A DNA stretch of 64,000 bases, taken from the NCBI GenBank assembly GCA_963758525.1, contig CAVWVQ010000003.1, forward strand, positions 416,001-480,000, written 5' to 3'. The stretch comes from an uncultured Phycisphaerales bacterium. GTDB taxonomy: Bacteria; Planctomycetota; Phycisphaerae; Tepidisphaerales; Tepidisphaeraceae. Below, piece after piece: positions 49,344 through 61,094 of the stretch. A program made the translations under genes and the position numbers. The notes under the pieces are model-generated. The model was not told where the DNA came from. It saw only the letters and a list, made by a program, of their open reading frames with translations, and did no database searches. Every line of letters starts with the position of its first letter. The first letter of the stretch is position 1.

Positions 49344-51577
49344 TCACGGCACTGTCGTCGGATCGCTCTTGGAAAATCCGTGCAGGCGGGCCATGTTCAT
49401 CAGCGTCTGCTGAGTTCCGATGTCACCTGGCTCGGGCTTGCGCTGCTCGTAGGATCCGTCGCTGCGCATCTCCCACGCCTGACGGCGGTCGCGCAGCATG
49501 ATGTTCAGAATCTCCCACAATCTCTCGCGCAGGTGACGCTTCTCGATGGGGGCGGCGGCCTCCACGCGGGCCAGCAGATTGCGGTACATCCAGTCGGCCG
49601 AGCCGATGATGAACTCTCCATCCAACTCGTCGGCCGCGCCGTTGCGGAAGTAAAAGATCCGAGAGTGCTCGAGGAATCGGCCGATAATTGAAATCACCGA
49701 AATATTTTCACTCAGCCCGTTGACGCCAGGCCGCAGGACGCAGAATCCGCGGACGATCAAGTCGATCTTCACGCCGGCCTGCGAAGCGTGGTAGAGCACC
49801 GGCAAACCTTGCGGTCTTCCAGGGCGTTCATCTTCGCGACGATCCGCGCGGGTTTGCCGGCTTTCGCATTGGCCGCCTCGCGATCGATCAGCTCCAGAAA
49901 CCTTGCCTGCATGTTGACCGGCGCGACAAGCAGCTTGCGATAGTCGCGCTTGAGCGATCTGCCCGTGAGGTAATGAAACAATTCGATCACATCGTGCGTG
50001 ATGCCCGGATCGCAGGTGAACAAACCGAGATCGGTGTAGAGCTTGGCGGTGCCGGAGTGATAGTTGCCGGTGCCGATGTGCACGTAGGAGCGGATCCCGT
50101 CCAAATCCTGACGCACCACGAGCGTGGTCTTCGTGTGTGTCTTGAGCCCGACGATGCCATAAACAACATGCACCCCCGCCTTTTCCAGGGCGCTGGCCAG
50201 GTGGATGTTGCGCTCCTCGTCAAAGCGGGCCTTGAGCTCGACGAGGCAGACCACCTGCTTGCCCGCCTCGGCAGCGCCGATGAGCGTCTGAATGAACGAG
50301 CTTCTGTCGCCCGTTCGATAGAGCGTCATCTTGATCGCCAGCACGTTGGGATCGGCGGCGGCGGCGCGGACGAATCGCTCGACGCTGCCCGTGAAGCTCT
50401 CATACGGAAGATGCACCAGCACGTCGCCATTGTGGATGACGTTGAAGATATCCGCGTCCTCATCGGCGAAAGGCGCCGGGACCATCGCGCTCCAAGGCTC
50501 AAACCGCAGGCGCGGAATGTTCAGGTCGGCGATGCTTCGCAGATCGTCGTAATCCAGCTCGCCGGACATCTCGTACAAATCCTCGGGCACCAATTGCAGC
50601 TCGCGCATCAGAAATTCCAGCACCCATTGGTTGGTGTTGGGCCCGTATTCCAGCCGAACCATCCGCGCGAAGCGACGCTGGCGGATCTCCTCTTCCATCA
50701 GCTCCAGCAGATCTTCCGCCTCTTCCTCGTCACGCTCGAGATCGGCATTGCGCGTGACCCGAAACGGCATCACGTCCACCACCGCCATGTCCGGAAACAG
50801 GTCCTGCAGATTTTGGCGGATCAGCGTGTTCAAACTGACGAACCGCATCGGCCCGCTGCCGGCGACATTGTGCAGGCCGACCCATTTCGGCAGCACTTCC
50901 GGCACTTTCACGCGCGCGAACAGGTTCTCGTGTTTGTCGGGATGGTGCAGGACGACCGCCAATGAAGTTGAAAGGTTGGAGATGAACGGAAATGGAATGC
51001 CCGGATCGACCGCCAATGGCGTGAGCACCGGAAAAACCGTTGCGCGGAAATAGCGTGTGGCGCTTTCGCGATCGGTCTCGCTCAGGTCGGACCATTCGAG
51101 CAGATGAATCCCATTTTCCGCCAACGCCGGCCGCAGGACATTCTTGTAGCACGCGGCCTGCTGCGCGAGCATCGGCACCACCGCCGCGCGAATCGACGCC
51201 AGTGTGTGGGCCGGGGTCATCCCGTCCAGCGACTGCGCCACGACGCCCGCGGCAATCTGCCGCTTGAGACCGCCGACGCGCTTCATGAAATATTCGTCGA
51301 GATTCGAGGTGAAGATCCCCAGAAACCGCACGCGCTCCAGCAAGGGCGTGCGATCGTCCAACGCCTCGTGCAGCACCCGGCGATTGAATTCCAGCCAGGT
51401 CAGATCTCGGCTGAGAAACTCGGAGGGCCCTGCCGCCGCTGCACCTGCTCCAGTGACAGACACGCTTGCGGCGACCGCGCCGTTCCCGCTGGCGACGATC
51501 TCGCTGAGCGAAGCGGTGGAGCGCTCCACCACGTCCGCTTCCTGCCGGCCCCCGAAGTTGCGTCTCGATTTAGCCAT
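49344..51577 (-). CDS. ppk1: Polyphosphate kinase 1; frameshift near 49800
   Basis: RDLTWLEFNRRVL, IKMTLYR, ELKARFDEE, KTHTK, GTGNY, GRFLEHSRI, SADWMYRNL. Confidence 0.96.
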
Positions 51578-54205: not shown

Positions 54206-54943
54206 CTATGGTTGAGACCCTTTGCTGCGTCCCTTGGGCGCGCGGTCGAGCCAGGGATACTTGCCCCAGATGGCGTCTACTCCTCGCGCATAGGTGGAAT
54301 ATGTGTGGTAGACGACGCCGTCCTCAAGCGCGAAAGCGCTCATGCCCTCCCGCTCGCGCGAATAAGTACCCACATCCGTTCCGGTTGTGGCTGCGTTATT
54401 GGCAGGAGCGGAGCGCGTCGCTTCGGACCTCGCAATATTCATCACGGGGTCGTCGCGGCGGAAGTTGTAGTTGGCGCCATCGCGCACTTGCTCAGCCGTG
54501 AAGGAGACGTGGAAATCGAAATTAAAGTCGCTGCCGAACGACGACGCCCAGGGAAAGGTCCAACTTTTTTCGCGCTTGTAGTCTTGCAGCTTTGCCAAAG
54601 GGCCCCGTGACACGGCCCAGAGCGTGACGTCATGATTTGCCAGGTGGGCGGTAATGCCGTTGAAGCCGTCCGCGATGGATGAGCACGACGGGCAACCCTT
54701 CGAGTATTCCGGTCCGAACATGAAGTGGTAGACGAGCAGTTGAGAGCGCCCTCTGAAGAGATCAGCCAGCGATGCTTTTCCTTCCTCCGTGTCGAATCTG
54801 TATTCCTTCTCTATCGGAACCCACGGCAACTCTTGCCGCCGCTGCGCTACTTCGTCTCCACGCCGCGTCAGCTCCTTCTCCGCCTTGAGCAAATCAAGCC
54901 GAGCTGACAGCCACTCTTCGCGCGTTCCAGTCTTATGATTCGG
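54206..54943 (-). pseudogene. DUF899 thioredoxin-like protein lacking its start codon
   Basis: NHKTGTREEWLSARL, LPWV, YHFMFG, CPSCS, TYSTYARG, LDRAPKGR; the frame runs into the repeat array with no ATG. Confidence 0.8.
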
Positions 54944-55881
54944 GGAAGTGAAACGGGGACGGAAGTGAAACGGGGACGCAGCTAGTTAATTAGCGGGAAG
55001 TGAAACGGGGACGCAGCTAGTTAATTAGCGGTAGCGATCACATTTTCGCGCCTTTCTGAACCTTCTCCGGGCGGCCTTCGCGGCGGACGGTATGGCCCAG
55101 ACCCAGCTCATGGGCCATCTTGGCCGTCCAACCGGCGTTCCCCAGCGGCCGGCCACGCCGCTCGCTGGTTGCGACCGCCTCCCGCTCGGCGTCGGTCGGG
55201 GGCCGGTTTACCAGTTCAATCCAGTCCCGTCCACGGCTCGACCGGCCAGGGAGACAGAATCGATTTCTGCTGCTTGGTCCCGTGTTGCCGGACCCACAGG
55301 CTCGACCATCGCCACTGCTCCGCCCGCTCCACCAGATTGGCCGCCAGGGCGTTGCGTTCCACATATCGGCAGACGCTCAGCAGATGCCCGTCCCGTGCCA
55401 CCGGAAAGCTCTTGAACCGGCCCTGGTAGAGATGCCCGTAGCCGACGGTGTGATGGGACACACGCCAGCGCATCGCATGGGTATGGGTCAGCCAGCGGAA
55501 GACGCCGTCACTTCCCCGTCCCGCTCCGGCCAGACGACAAAATGCCAATGGTTGGACATCAGGCAATAGGAGAGGATACGGATCGGATGCCGTTCATGAG
55601 CTTCCTGCACGATCCGCTCGAACGCCTCGAAGTCGCTCTCCCGGCGGAGCATCACCATCCGTCCCACCGCGCGATTGAGCGACGAGGCCGCTGGGAGCGA
55701 CGCGAGGAGGACGGGGCATGCAAACGAAGGTAACTTTAAAACGCCGCTCGTCAACAACTAGTTGCGTCCCCGTTTCACTTCCCTAGTTGCGTCCCCGTTT
55801 CACTTCCTCCAGTCCCGCTCGTCAACAACTAGTTGCGTCCCCGTTTCACTTCCTCCCTAGTTGCGTCCCCGTTTCACTTCC
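54944..55881. mobile_element. Y1/HUH transposase element bounded by iterated inverted terminal repeats
   Basis: Three left copies of GGAAGTGAAACGGGGAC(GCAGCTAG) and four right copies of CTAGTTGCGTCCCCGTTTCACTTCC enclose the transposase. Confidence 0.85.
55038..55719 (-). pseudogene. REP-associated tyrosine transposase-like gene (IS200/Y1 family) with three frame breaks
   Basis: MPRPPRVAPSGLV / LNRAVGR..YCLMSNHWH (HUH) / GHLYQGRFKS..CRYVERN..WRWSS / RGRPLG..GRP. Confidence 0.88.
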
Positions 55882-55996
55882 TCCTCGGTCAGAGAGATGA
55901 CGCGTTCCCGAACCAGCAGTTGCTCCCCGGGAGCAAGCTTGTCGAAATCGTTCAATAATCTGGCGGCTACGAGTGGGCAAGCGATTCGGAAGGCTC

Positions 55997-56806: not shown

Positions 56807-57123
56807 CGATCTATAAACGACGTGGGCGAGCATATTATTTCGGGGTTTGGTATTGAGGATTCGCGTTATTCAGCCCTCCCGTGTCCGTGGGTTGAGCGAT
56901 TTTTCGGTCCGCGACGACGCGAAGCGGATCCCGCCACCCTTGGCGGATCACCGCGCTTCGACCTTGGAGGCGCGGAGGTGTGTGAATGGCGCAAATCTGG
57001 CGGGCGTCTAAAACAGTCGAGTTCGCGGAAAGCGGCGAACAAATGATCTCGTAATCGACCAAGTCAATCGGCATCTGACTCTCCTTCCCGCGTAACGATC
57101 CTCAATGTGTCCCGCGGGTTTAT

Positions 57124-58353
57124 TCACTGCCGCGCCTGTCCCGCCGACGTCGGCGCCGGCCCCGAAACAACACAACGGAACCCGGTGTGCGACAGGCTCG
57201 TATCGGGACTGGTCCCCCGACGGGCGCTGACGCGGTAGCTGGCGCAGTACTGATGCGCTGCAGAGAAAGGACCCGCCGCGCGTGACTCGTTTGGGGGTAT
57301 ATGGTTCGCCCGGATCGAAGCTCTTGTCTGGGCCCTGGGGATCGATCACCGCCTTTGCGCCGGACGCTTTTTCCCCCGTGCGGTAGGCCGAGACGTCATA
57401 CCAATCCGCGCACCACTGCCAAACGTTGCCGGCCATGTCGTATAACCCGAAGCCGTTTGGCGGGAAGGATTTTACGGGGGAGGGGCCGGGATCTCCGCCG
57501 GTTTTGTCGCTCCGATACGGGAAGATTCCGTGCCAGATGTTGCATCGCGGGCGCGGGGTCATCGGATCATCATCGCCCCAGAAATATCGCTTGCCTTCCA
57601 GGCCGCCGCGCGCGGCGAATTCCCATTGGGCTTCGGTCGGGAGCCTGCGCCGGCCCATCTCGCGTAGTGGCTCGCGTCATCCCAACTAACTTGCACGACG
57701 GGGTAATCATCCTTGGCTTGGATTGAGCTTCCCGGGCCTTGTGGATGACGCCAATCCGCGCCAGGCGTCCAGCGCCACCATGCCGATACGTCATCCAGCG
57801 GAACGGGATGATCCGGCGCGACGAACACGAGTGATGCCGCCACCAACTGATCGTCAGGCGGCTTTGCCGTTCCCGGTGGAAGCTGCTTTTTCATCTCCTG
57901 CCAGTCCGGGGAACGCTCGGCCGAGGTGATGTAGCCGGTCGCTTCCACAAACCTGCGGAATTGGGCGTTGGTCACGTCGGTGCGATCCATCCAGAATCCG
58001 CTGACGCGAACCCGATGCGCCGGCCTTTCCTGCGGCTCGGCATCTTCGGCATCGCTGCCCATGGTGAACTCGCCGCCGGGAATCCAGACCCGATCTGCCT
58101 GCATTCGATTTGGCGATGGTGCATCGGATACGGAGCTGACGCTGGGAAGCGTCGACGGTGGAAATCGGCTCGGCAGCCTGCAGCACAGCGGAGTGGATGA
58201 AACTGCCGCGTTGGTGCCGGCGCTGGGCGACGCTGCTCTGGAGCCGGCGCGATTGTGGCCCCCTACTGCAAACAGCGCGGCCCCTAATCCTGCGATCAGG
58301 GTTACGCCGACGACGGCGGCGTGACGTGCTTTCAACGGAGGAATGTGCCGCAT
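57124..58353 (-). CDS. Formylglycine-generating enzyme family protein; frameshifts near 57655 and 57250
   Basis: GGEFTMGS, VTNAQF, PVVQVSW, RLPTEAQWE, GLYDMAGNVWQW, RGGSFLC..YCASYR..GFRC. Confidence 0.9.
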
Positions 58354-58786
58354 TGAAGTCTCCGGAGAATTCGGGGAAGCTCTGGGCATCCGCGGGCCGC
58401 GACGACGCTGGCGCGGAGGCGACGGTGCTCTCCGGACGCCACTCAGAAGGTTCCGTGCAATTCCTCATCAAAACCGTACGGTTGCTCGAAACGGGCGCGT
58501 TCAGCCGAGAAGTTTATCCGCGCGAGTCGACGAGCGAATTGGGGATCGCTTCGGCGACCGGTCCGGGCGATCCCGAGCAGCCCCCACCCCAGCCCTCCGC
58601 CGGAGTACCAGGGGGGGAAGGAGTTGCGACAAAGCTGGTTACACGCTCGCTGGAAATCGGGCACGCCCGATCATGTATTCCATGATGCGAGTCGCGAGTG
58701 AACATCTTTTATTTCACAATAATCCCGGCATTGCTGCGTTTGTTAGGCTCTGTCTCAACTGCGTGGGGATGGTCAATATGCCGTTC

Positions 58787-59320
58787 ATGACATCAACTCA
58801 GCGACGACGGGTGGTTCGGTGCGGGTGCTTGGCGGCGGTTGCGATATTGCTCCTTGCGGGCAGCAGCATGGCCGAGAACACGCCGCGGCGACAGAACCTC
58901 GCCTTGAACAGGCCGGCGTCGGCATCGTCAATTGAAAACGATGATCAGAGCGCCGCCAAGGCAAACGACGGCGATGACGACTCGCGCTGGTGCGCCGATG
59001 ACGAACCGGAGAATGGCGCGGAGTGGTGGCAAGTGGACTTCGGAAAGCCCACGGACCTGACTGGCTGCCAAATCACCTGGCCCTACGATGGCAAGCGATA
59101 CCTATATAAAGTGGAAGGGTCGTCTGATCGCAAGGCCTGGACTATGCTGAGCGATCAGACGCAAACCGCCGCGAGGACGCGCGTGCAGGAGTTGAAGTTC
59201 GAGAAGGCGAGGGGGATCAGGTTTGTGAGGATCACAGTAACGGGGTTTGAACAGGGATGCTGGGCAAGCATCTCTGAGGTACAAGTCTTTGGGCAAGAGA
59301 ATAACGCCGGAGGGCGATGA
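58787..59320 (+). CDS. Secreted discoidin (F5/8 type C, CBM32-like) domain protein
   Basis: NLALNRPASASS, ANDGD..SRW, WWQVDFG, RFVRI, ISEVQVFG. Confidence 0.88.
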   Translation: MTSTQRRRVVRCGCLAAVAILLLAGSSMAENTPRRQNLALNRPASASSIENDDQSAAKANDGDDDSRWCADDEPENGAEWWQVDFGKPTDLTGCQITWPYDGKRYLYKVEGSSDRKAWTMLSDQTQTAARTRVQELKFEKARGIRFVRITVTGFEQGCWASISEVQVFGQENNAGGR

Positions 59321-61094
59321 TGAAGATCGCGATTGCATTGGTGGTGACGTTGATGGGCGCGATGTGCGGCACTGTCCGCGCAGCGGAGGTGGCTAAGCCA
59401 AACATTATTTTTGTCCTCGCGGACGATCTGGGCATCGACGGCGTCAGTTGCTACGGGGCCGACAAGCACCAGACTCCGCATATCGATGCGCTGGCGGCTT
59501 CGGGCACGCGGTTCCAGACCTGTTACGCTGCGCCGCTTTGCGGACCGTCGCGCTGCCTGTTGATGACGGGCCGGTATGCGTTTCACACCGGCGGCTTAAC
59601 CAATCAGTCGTGGCGCGGCGGAGGGCCAGGCGCCAAATCCGCCAACGAATACCCGATGGCAAAGCTGATGAAGGATGCCGGCTATGCCACGGGGCAGGCC
59701 GGTAAATGGAGGCAGATCGGCGAACTGCCGGGGAATTGGGGGTTCGACGAATTTCTCACCGACAACACTGCCAGCGGTTGGTACTGGGAAACCCACTACA
59801 ACAAAAACGGACAGGAACTGGATCTGCCGAGAGGCGCTTATGGTCCCGATGTCATTCAGGAGTTCACGTTTGACTTCATCCGCCGGCATAAAGACAAGCC
59901 GTTCTTTTTTTATTACGCGATGCACCTGGTGCACAAGCCGACGGTGCGCACGCCTGATTCGTCGCCCGGCACGACCAACGTCAGCGAACTGTACGACGAA
60001 AATATCAAATACATGGACAAGCAGGTGGGAGCATTGATTGACGAGCTGGAGAAGGATGGAATTCGGAACAACACGCTGATCCTTTTTGCCGGAGACAACG
60101 GGACCGCCACGGGGTACCCCAGTTCCGTCCACGGTCGAATGATCAATGGATGGAAGGGGAGCATGCTTGAAGGCGGCGCTCGCGTCCCGTTCATCGCGAG
60201 CTGGCCGGGCGTGACGCCGGCCGGCAAGGTCCTCGATGACATCGTGAGCTTTGCCGATCCGTATGTCACTTTCTCCGAGCTCACCGGCGCCAAGCTTTCC
60301 GATACGGTGAAGCCCGACGGCCAGAGCCTCGCTCCGCAGCTTCGCGGCGAGCCGGGCACGCCCCGCAAATGGGCATACGTGCAACTCGGCGAGAAATGGT
60401 ACCTGCGCGAGCCGGGATACAAGATGAACCAGTCGGGCGAGCTGTTTGACATGAGTGACGCTCCCTTCGTCGAAAAGCCCCTCGCGCCCCAAGCCGACAC
60501 CGACCAAAGCAAAGCCGCTCGTCAGCGCCTCACGACGGCTCTGGCGGAGCTGAATCCCGCCGCCGGCAAGACCGACAAGGAAGGACGAAAGGTCGGCCGC
60601 GGAATGAACGCCACCGCCAAGGCTTCGGAAGGGAAGCGTCCAGCCGGACCGTGGAAGACGGGTGATACCCTGTTGAACACCGAGGCTCCCCTGATCGCTG
60701 AGAAGGCGCTGGAGATATCGGCCGAGATTGACGCGAACGGAGCCGACGGTGTCATCGTTGCGCAAGGAGCGCCGCGGAGGGTTATGCCGTGTATGTGACG
60801 GGCGGGAAGCTGGCCTTCGCCGTCCGGGAGAAGAAAAAGCTGACGACGATCATTGCAAAGGAACCATTGGGTGGCGGCCATTTCACCGTGCGGGCAACTC
60901 TCCATAAAGATGGGGCGATGGCTCTTTTGGTCGACGAAGAACCAGTGGCCGAGGGCAACGCCGGCGGCCCGATTCCCCAGCAGCCCAAAGGCAGGTTTTC
61001 GGTGGGCACAGCTAACGAAACCGCCATCGGCGACTACGATCCGGCTAATGTGTTCAAAGGAAAGATCACGAACGTGACGGTCGCGGCGGAATGA
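59317..61094 (+). CDS. Cys-type sulfatase with a C-terminal LamG-like domain; frameshift near 60775
   Basis: PNIIFVLADDLG, CGPSR..LMTG, GKW, HKP, DNG, KG..EGG; frame 60789..61094 supplies the beta-sandwich end (FKGKI). Confidence 0.9.

Follow-up and report, generated by a model that had tools for sequence, protein, structure and literature searches.

The question raised by this locus, which lies within a 64,000-nucleotide stretch of DNA from an uncultured Phycisphaerales bacterium (the window), is why an HUH/Y1 transposase gene should be boxed by several stacked copies of its terminal inverted repeats (TIRs), and what these stacks say about the enzyme. At stake is the way in which a single-strand, hairpin-reading enzyme family handles inverted repeats. 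We find that such arrays are ordinary within the family to which the element belongs, and that across the family they give a specific picture of enzyme action. The element and its surroundings are laid out as follows, with positions inside an end numbered relative to its GGGAC core:

54206..54943, minus strand: DUF899 gene (PF05988) lacking its start codon and upstream DNA; the element end adjoins codon 2
54944..54960, plus strand: extra left-end unit 1, a 17-nt prefix of the end; period 17, edge at -12, 1 nt overlap
54961..54995, plus strand: extra left-end unit 2, a 35-nt prefix of the end; period 35, edge at -12, 1 nt overlap
54996..55022, plus strand: inner TIR on the gene's 3' side; the GGGAC core begins 12 nt in
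55038..55719, minus strand: disrupted HUH/Y1 (TIRYT) transposase gene, with HWH at 55550-55542 and YVERN at 55365-55351
55720..55755, minus strand: probable promoter stretch directly within the 5' end, containing a TTGACG box
55756..55782, minus strand: inner TIR on the gene's 5' side
55783..55807, minus strand: extra right-end unit of 25 nt
55808..55853, minus strand: extra right-end unit of 39 nt (55815-55853) plus a 7-nt linker (55808-55814)
55854..55881, minus strand: outermost right-end unit of 25 nt plus a GGA linker (55854-55856)
55882..55975, minus strand: 5' part of a small gene, cut near its middle at the element's right end as judged by comparison with a paralogue

Read from the outside in, both ends consist of stacked prefixes of one end sequence. 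The left stack runs through 17 and 35 nt to the inner end at 54996, and the right stack through 25, 39 and 25 nt to the inner end at 55782, interrupted by linkers of 3 and 7 nt; the 7-nt linker reads GACTGGA on the minus strand and is unmatched by the end sequence. The repeats are beyond chance, with a shared 17-mer occurring 7 times in the window as compared to 0.00 times expected from 100 shuffles. An earlier note on this DNA had placed a 17-nt unit at 54944 and identical 35-mers at 54961 and 54996 on the left, and four 25-mers at 55758, 55783, 55829 and 55857 on the right, two of them preceded by CCGCTCGTCAACAA. All of these coordinates hold, as does the single mismatch that it reported between the reverse-complementary arms, which are 27 nt long and 96% complementary. 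Its repeats are thus real, but its count included the copies at 54996 and 55756-55782, which are the element's own inner ends, so that the extra units number two on the left and three on the right. Similarly, the outer boundary that all units were said to share is near-fixed but not an identical base: it falls in a narrow window of about -11 to -15, and because of the linkers GGA and GACTGGA the starts of two right copies are at least 12 nt, and up to 15 nt or more, outside the core.

The transposase gene of the window element is spread over three frames and gives only a weak Y1_Tnp match. Its closest relative in the host genome is an intact paralogue of 231 aa with ends of the same family (G000:C3:1093985-1094680, 79% nucleotide identity). 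The host genome also contains 8 further copies of the 25-mer (3 mismatches or fewer). Compared with this paralogue the window gene carries indels of -8 near 55680, where the first strand is taken out, of -1 near 55504 and of +1 near 55236. Three neighbouring genes in the window are frameshifted as well (a polyphosphate kinase at 49769-51577, a formylglycine-enzyme-like gene at 57008-58389 and a sulfatase at 59317-61094), which suggests residual indel errors in the assembly. The 1-nt indels in the transposase gene may therefore be assembly errors too, an explanation that is less likely for the 8-nt deletion. Contigs from two runs (0.06 share) do not reach across the arrays, but one of them is near-exact over 55053-55277 and does not have the additional base near 55235, which hints weakly at either a misassembly or a private change as the origin of this indel. 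Since the window gene is broken, the enzyme for any late activity at its ends would have to be supplied in trans by the intact paralogue, whose ends are the same.

The presence of an HUH/Y1 transposase between TIRs, as first proposed from the sequence, is borne out by the HWH and YVERN motifs, the 27-nt arms and the match of the intact paralogue to PF01797 (E 6e-11). In an alignment of 116 homologues H60 and H62 are invariant and Y122 nearly so. Both the homologue profile and a confident structural model (pLDDT 92) have E. coli TnpA-REP (4ER8) as their best match, and no solved fold is closer (Z 15.7 with an rmsd of 3.0 across 160 residues, as compared to Z 9.2 for IS608 TnpA). Conserved residues reach about position 220 of the 231-aa protein, past the core matched to 146; three helices are predicted at the C-terminus, the model of that isolated piece, made without an alignment, being poor (pLDDT 61), and no HTH Pfam domain was matched in the 116 members. 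Where TnpA-Y1 class 2 has the motif Y---NP, the branch of the window element reads YVERNA and its sister paralogues in the host genome read YVEANP. This genome holds 33 homologous loci, 9 of them with a full-length open frame, and at least 4 end families. Named relatives fall in the Planctomycetota, the nearest in the Tepidisphaeraceae and Phycisphaerales. As for the gene's expression, a TTGAC box is found at 90/159 5' ends but only 1/132 3' ends of relatives, about 30 nt ahead of the start codon, a position that would fit a leaderless transcript controlled through binding of the transposase. A scan of the window element for the sigma-70 consensus returned 0 promoter sites.

These traits identify the window element as a frameshifted, TIR-flanked HUH/Y1 element of a family that has a name: Di Nocera, De Gregorio and Rocco introduced TIRYTs and TIRtrons in 2013, and noted TIR dimers and clusters (PMC3733652). 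The likeness extends to a RAYT-like HUH/Tyr protein that has a C-terminal extension and measures about 225-230 aa, to a gene boxed by TIRs with a GGGG-AC core, and to the occurrence of TIR copies as singles, dimers and clusters. The motif GGGGWSAS, reported for some but not all TIRs (PMC3733652), is matched at 7/8 positions by GGGGACGC in the window element; it is exact in 57/291 related ends, and GGGGWSRS is found in 176/291. The earlier note stated that TIR-flanked tyrosine transposases had been noticed but, to its knowledge, lacked a characterized mechanism; the family had in fact already been named. Our searches gave no paper on TIRYT cleavage or on end-anchored duplications, with the reservation that more may be contained in theses, in journals behind subscription and in the figures and alignments that accompany the 2013 paper, and the accessible portion of the 2013 account describes no end-anchored prefix duplications, cut position, junction rule, flank rearrangements or biochemistry. 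Likewise, starts at -11 to -14, purine joins, microhomology of about 1 nt, missing target duplication and unclean insertions, all of which are described here, were not found in the literature searched.

Quentin et al. (2018) equate TIRYTs with subclass 2.1 of TnpA-Y1, present in 14.9% of strains (10.1101/279083), and a term search of their supplements (PMC6006769) was without match. According to Bertels et al. (2017), group 1 is the most IS-like group of RAYTs (PMC5581495). TIRYTs largely correspond to subclass 2.1 and RAYT group 1. The intact paralogue, with its length of 231 aa and its conserved C-terminal extension, and the lack of a REP-like hairpin at the ends agree with subclass 2.1, for which a C-terminal resemblance to helix-turn-helix domains is also described. 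TnpA-REP offers the closest solved structure, and tandem site amplification by nick and strand transfer has been proposed as a model for it (PMC3333891); however, REPs are GTAG-tagged hairpins that are cut at C^T at varied distances (PMC3333891, PMC8266576), whereas in the family of the window element single ends form no stable hairpin and joins cluster at one distance. A REPtron (RAYT groups 2/3) was rejected since the ends have no GTAG palindromes, joins of the C^T type number 2/42, and the intact paralogue scores 48.7 against the NCBIfam RAYT model NF047646, below the cut-off of 80. The TnpA of IS200/IS605 elements (IS608, ISDra2) shares the HUH/Y1 core (PF01797) and the absence of a target duplication, but goes with two unlike subterminal hairpins, no TIRs and a shorter protein; membership was rejected on the presence of TIRs, the absence of hairpins and the motif YVERN in place of Y---Q. 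Precise excision and insertion are the rule for IS200/IS605, whereas no clean insertion was found among the elements tested here. In rolling-circle elements of the IS91/ISCR type one end is joined to the target together with variable adjacent DNA, through a different and larger HUH enzyme and two unlike ends; here, in contrast, both ends are equivalent and both stutter.

Loci for a family-wide comparison were drawn from genomes (80) and metagenomes (80), from a phylum-wide search and from three RefSeq plasmid records. The resulting 217 gene hits gave 296 distinct ends with a recognisable core, ends without a core being excluded, and 291 of these had at least 40 nt of flank. Paired TIRs were present at 82/134 related genes, so the repeat is indeed tied to Y1 transposases elsewhere. 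When an outer copy was defined as a 10-nt match reaching -7 or beyond, a further copy of the end was found outside 69/291 related ends as compared to 135/8,160 random control anchors, and an abutting extra copy at 50/291 as compared to 34/8,160. In the host genome 15/66 end copies are stacked, against 4/1,317 sites of equal G-run geometry, and two of those four control duplications turned out to be further ends of a sister family. Genome G420, a few of whose ends share sequence with the first set and which is therefore not fully independent, has 28/60 stacked end copies. Some of the duplicated units extend 75-400 nt into the element, and gene-less TIR dimers occur in the host genome and its relatives. 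The arrays are a common by-product across the family and not an end architecture special to this element. Viral contigs held no relative, and a comparison across E. coli populations gave no match to a related element.

Stacks could in principle be produced by assemblers joining mixed flanks at a repeated end, and the frameshifts in three neighbouring genes do suggest errors in this assembly. However, stacking is family-wide and similar in four assembly classes: abutting copies were found at 8/52 ends from k-mer MAGs, 9/40 from MAGs provisionally classed as long-read by their names, 8/38 from single-contig genomes (97% or more completeness) and 17/88 from JGI contigs. Stacked ends are also present in a RefSeq isolate record (NZ_CP116719.1). 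Assembly artefacts thus fit poorly, and we regard them as a most improbable source of the arrays.

The position at which copies start is narrowly defined. For 54/69 ends with an outer copy, the nearest one begins between -11 and -14, a fraction to be read against the search rule itself, which favours edges at -7 to -14 and placed 45/135 control hits at -11 to -14 as well. Independently of that rule, the base composition of the 291 ends is at background from about -14 outward, shows a G peak at -13 to -11, varies over -10 to -6 and becomes conserved at -5. When both ends of an element are compared, they agree in 71-100% of cases at -5 to +14, in roughly one half between -11 and -6, and no more often than by chance from -12 outward. 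In the G420 stretches examined, 12 ends have an identifiable flank donor; 10 of these join at -11 to -14, and the other two at -9 (with a 4-nt overlap) and at -20. The duplicated stretch reaches 3 nt or more past the contiguous TIR complementarity in 25/29 cases, which argues that the edge is set by distance from the core and not by the foot of a stem. Folding of single ends was no better than that of shuffles (z 0.6 to -1.5), including the inner end of the window element at 54996..55022, whose own hairpin is not stable (z 0.6), and a single-end hairpin was rejected on this comparison.

Junction sequences were analyzed in 42 of the 50 abutting cases, with 3 multi-unit periodic arrays and 5 cases with unexplained bases excluded; because related loci are not independent, p-values for the statistics that follow overstate significance. 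Overlap at the joins was 0-5 nt with a median of 1. A purine-to-purine join fits 40/42 cases, as compared to 63% of simulated duplications, and a purine step at both cut sites fits 31/42 (39% in the null); whether or not a second cut is assumed, the models do better than the null (37 and 31 of 42 cases). In the 11 joins with zero overlap the incoming base is a purine in 11/11, and the next donor base a pyrimidine in 7. In G420 purine-to-purine joins make up 22/25, with pyrimidine ends in 3/12 donor-mapped joins as an exception to the purine rule. A cut on the opposite strand, at pyrimidine steps, could equally fit these patterns. A strict dinucleotide such as C^T was rejected, since C^T on the other strand (A^G) at both sites fits 2/42, and the data lean slightly towards a loosely specified 3'-OH. 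No target duplication was found in 95 elements, repeats of lengths 3-8 being at the level of shuffles.

These junctions also bear on replication slippage between the G-runs of the ends, a process that would leave the transposase without a role. Slippage would be in line with the 24/42 units that end in the first five core positions, around the G-run, and with an overlap slightly above random (zero in 11/42 joins, as compared to 55% in the null). Yet the median overlap is a single nucleotide, equal G-run geometry off the ends is hardly ever duplicated and in half of those few cases belongs to an unrecognised end, and some units run 75-400 nt into the element; slippage therefore fits poorly, and we consider it highly improbable.

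Both genes that flank the window element are truncated. A homologue of the DUF899 gene in genome G002 has its ATG one codon earlier, and the small gene on the right has a full-length paralogue (G000:C3:4057408 onward, 84% identical), but the missing parts of both genes are absent across the element. Among the 14 paired elements of the host genome, 9 have a flank that is repeated elsewhere, and in the 8 that could be tested, where the repeat reaches the junction, there was no clean insertion (0/8), as no flank repeat resumes at the other end. In 3 of the 8, DNA on the far side of the element recurs past an end as a 95-99% copy over 430-740 nt, in the same orientation, and these copies start at or within 7 nt of the boundary; they are the long form of the end stutter. 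A check for an empty site in relatives found no synteny across the locus in 41 genomes.

The main rival that remains is a two-ended unit, in which circles cut from an end by two cuts would re-insert beside that end and build the arrays, with the flank mismatches being later, unrelated deletions. Circle excision and re-integration have been proposed for TnpA-REP (PMC3333891). Such a unit would agree with the excess of purine steps at both cut sites, and complete elements and paired mini-elements are common. It accords less well with the lack of clean insertions, with the pyrimidine that often stands on the donor's 3' side of zero-overlap joins, and with long same-orientation duplications that start at single ends, so that we consider it unlikely as an account of the arrays. 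Two-ended moves probably also occur, since full-length multi-copy elements with both ends exist.

The reading that we favour, and hold to be probable from the junctions and flanks, is that the enzyme nicks every end some 12-13 nt outside the core and joins it, independently of the other, to a new 3'-OH, from which stuttered ends, deletions of adjacent DNA and local duplications would arise. HUH enzymes cleave a single strand, keep its 5' phosphate on the tyrosine and resolve this link with a 3'-OH (PMC8266576), and nick, extension and strand transfer have been proposed for BIME amplification by E. coli TnpA-REP, with strand transfer shown in vitro (PMC3333891). By this favoured mechanism, the enzyme would bind the GGGAC core of an end that forms no hairpin alone, and nick about 12-13 nt outside it, the tyrosine staying linked to the 5' phosphate of the end. 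The end would then be transferred to a new, purine-ending 3'-OH, supplied by extension of a nick or by a second cut. If this 3'-OH lay slightly inside the same end, a short prefix would be duplicated, yielding the arrays; if far along the same strand, a long stretch would be duplicated; and if in the flank, the intervening DNA would be deleted, leaving truncated neighbours. Slightly shifted cuts would renew the variable bases at -13 to -7. The earlier note had supposed that the enzyme nicks and then re-copies or re-inserts its own end; the junction statistics do fit enzyme-made, end-anchored duplications, while re-copying and re-insertion are indistinguishable by sequence.

More tentatively, and at somewhat less than even odds in our judgement, TIRYTs may represent a third mode of HUH/Y1 action: a ruler-type enzyme would recognise a non-hairpin core, cut at a set distance and join ends singly, acting as a local deletion and duplication engine that makes anything from 10-nt stutters to kilobase duplications and swaps the outer bases of its ends with captured target DNA. 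The end stutters would then be a fossil record of cleavage at a purine step that lies some 12-13 nt outside GGGAC, and the predicted products would be one-ended joins without target duplication. TIR-flanked tyrosine transposases form a very large group (7,994/7,999 scored clusters at E <= 1e-20). If correct, this activity would cause local deletions and duplications in the genomes of Planctomycetota that have so far gone unrecognised as its products and, where a genome carries dozens of ends, would serve as an inbuilt diversifier of the genes nearby. Laurenceau et al. suggested that subclass 2.1 has a diversifying role close to lanthipeptide genes, and later softened this view (10.1101/2020.03.09.984088).

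Several further observations were made on the ends. Pairs of facing ends with no gene between them make up mini-elements of about 60 bp in the host genome (G000:C3:819740-819862, C3:2067295-2067341 and C3:2069940-2069982) and at loci L269-L288; these form families, with about 40 end copies in genome G005, and their ends stutter alike. Several different TIRtron families have nested ends at G000:C3:224535-224906 and C3:4613829-4615050, where every end is joined to a truncated fragment of some other element. Several flanks of family-B ends in the host genome (for example C1:316012, C3:305667 and C3:3470685) resemble RHS/YD-repeat coding sequence by eye; a literature search on links to Rhs or polymorphic toxins found nothing relevant. 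On the JGI metagenome contigs (L159-L238), 15/91 ends lie 150 nt or less from where the contig stops, and contigs of only about 1 kb carry many of the homologues, a pattern that flank variation within populations would produce. In the Pseudomonas aeruginosa record (L156, NZ_CP116719.1), three distant TIRYT copies lie among short cassettes whose genes are annotated as toxin-domain, endonuclease or hypothetical; two of them have a downstream gene in common and differ in their upstream joins, and one has stacked ends that apparently start closer to the core. In G420, finally, ends are dense within a few kb of a single chromosome (G420:C1:5110500-5114500 and 5921900-5925700), as local hopping would give.
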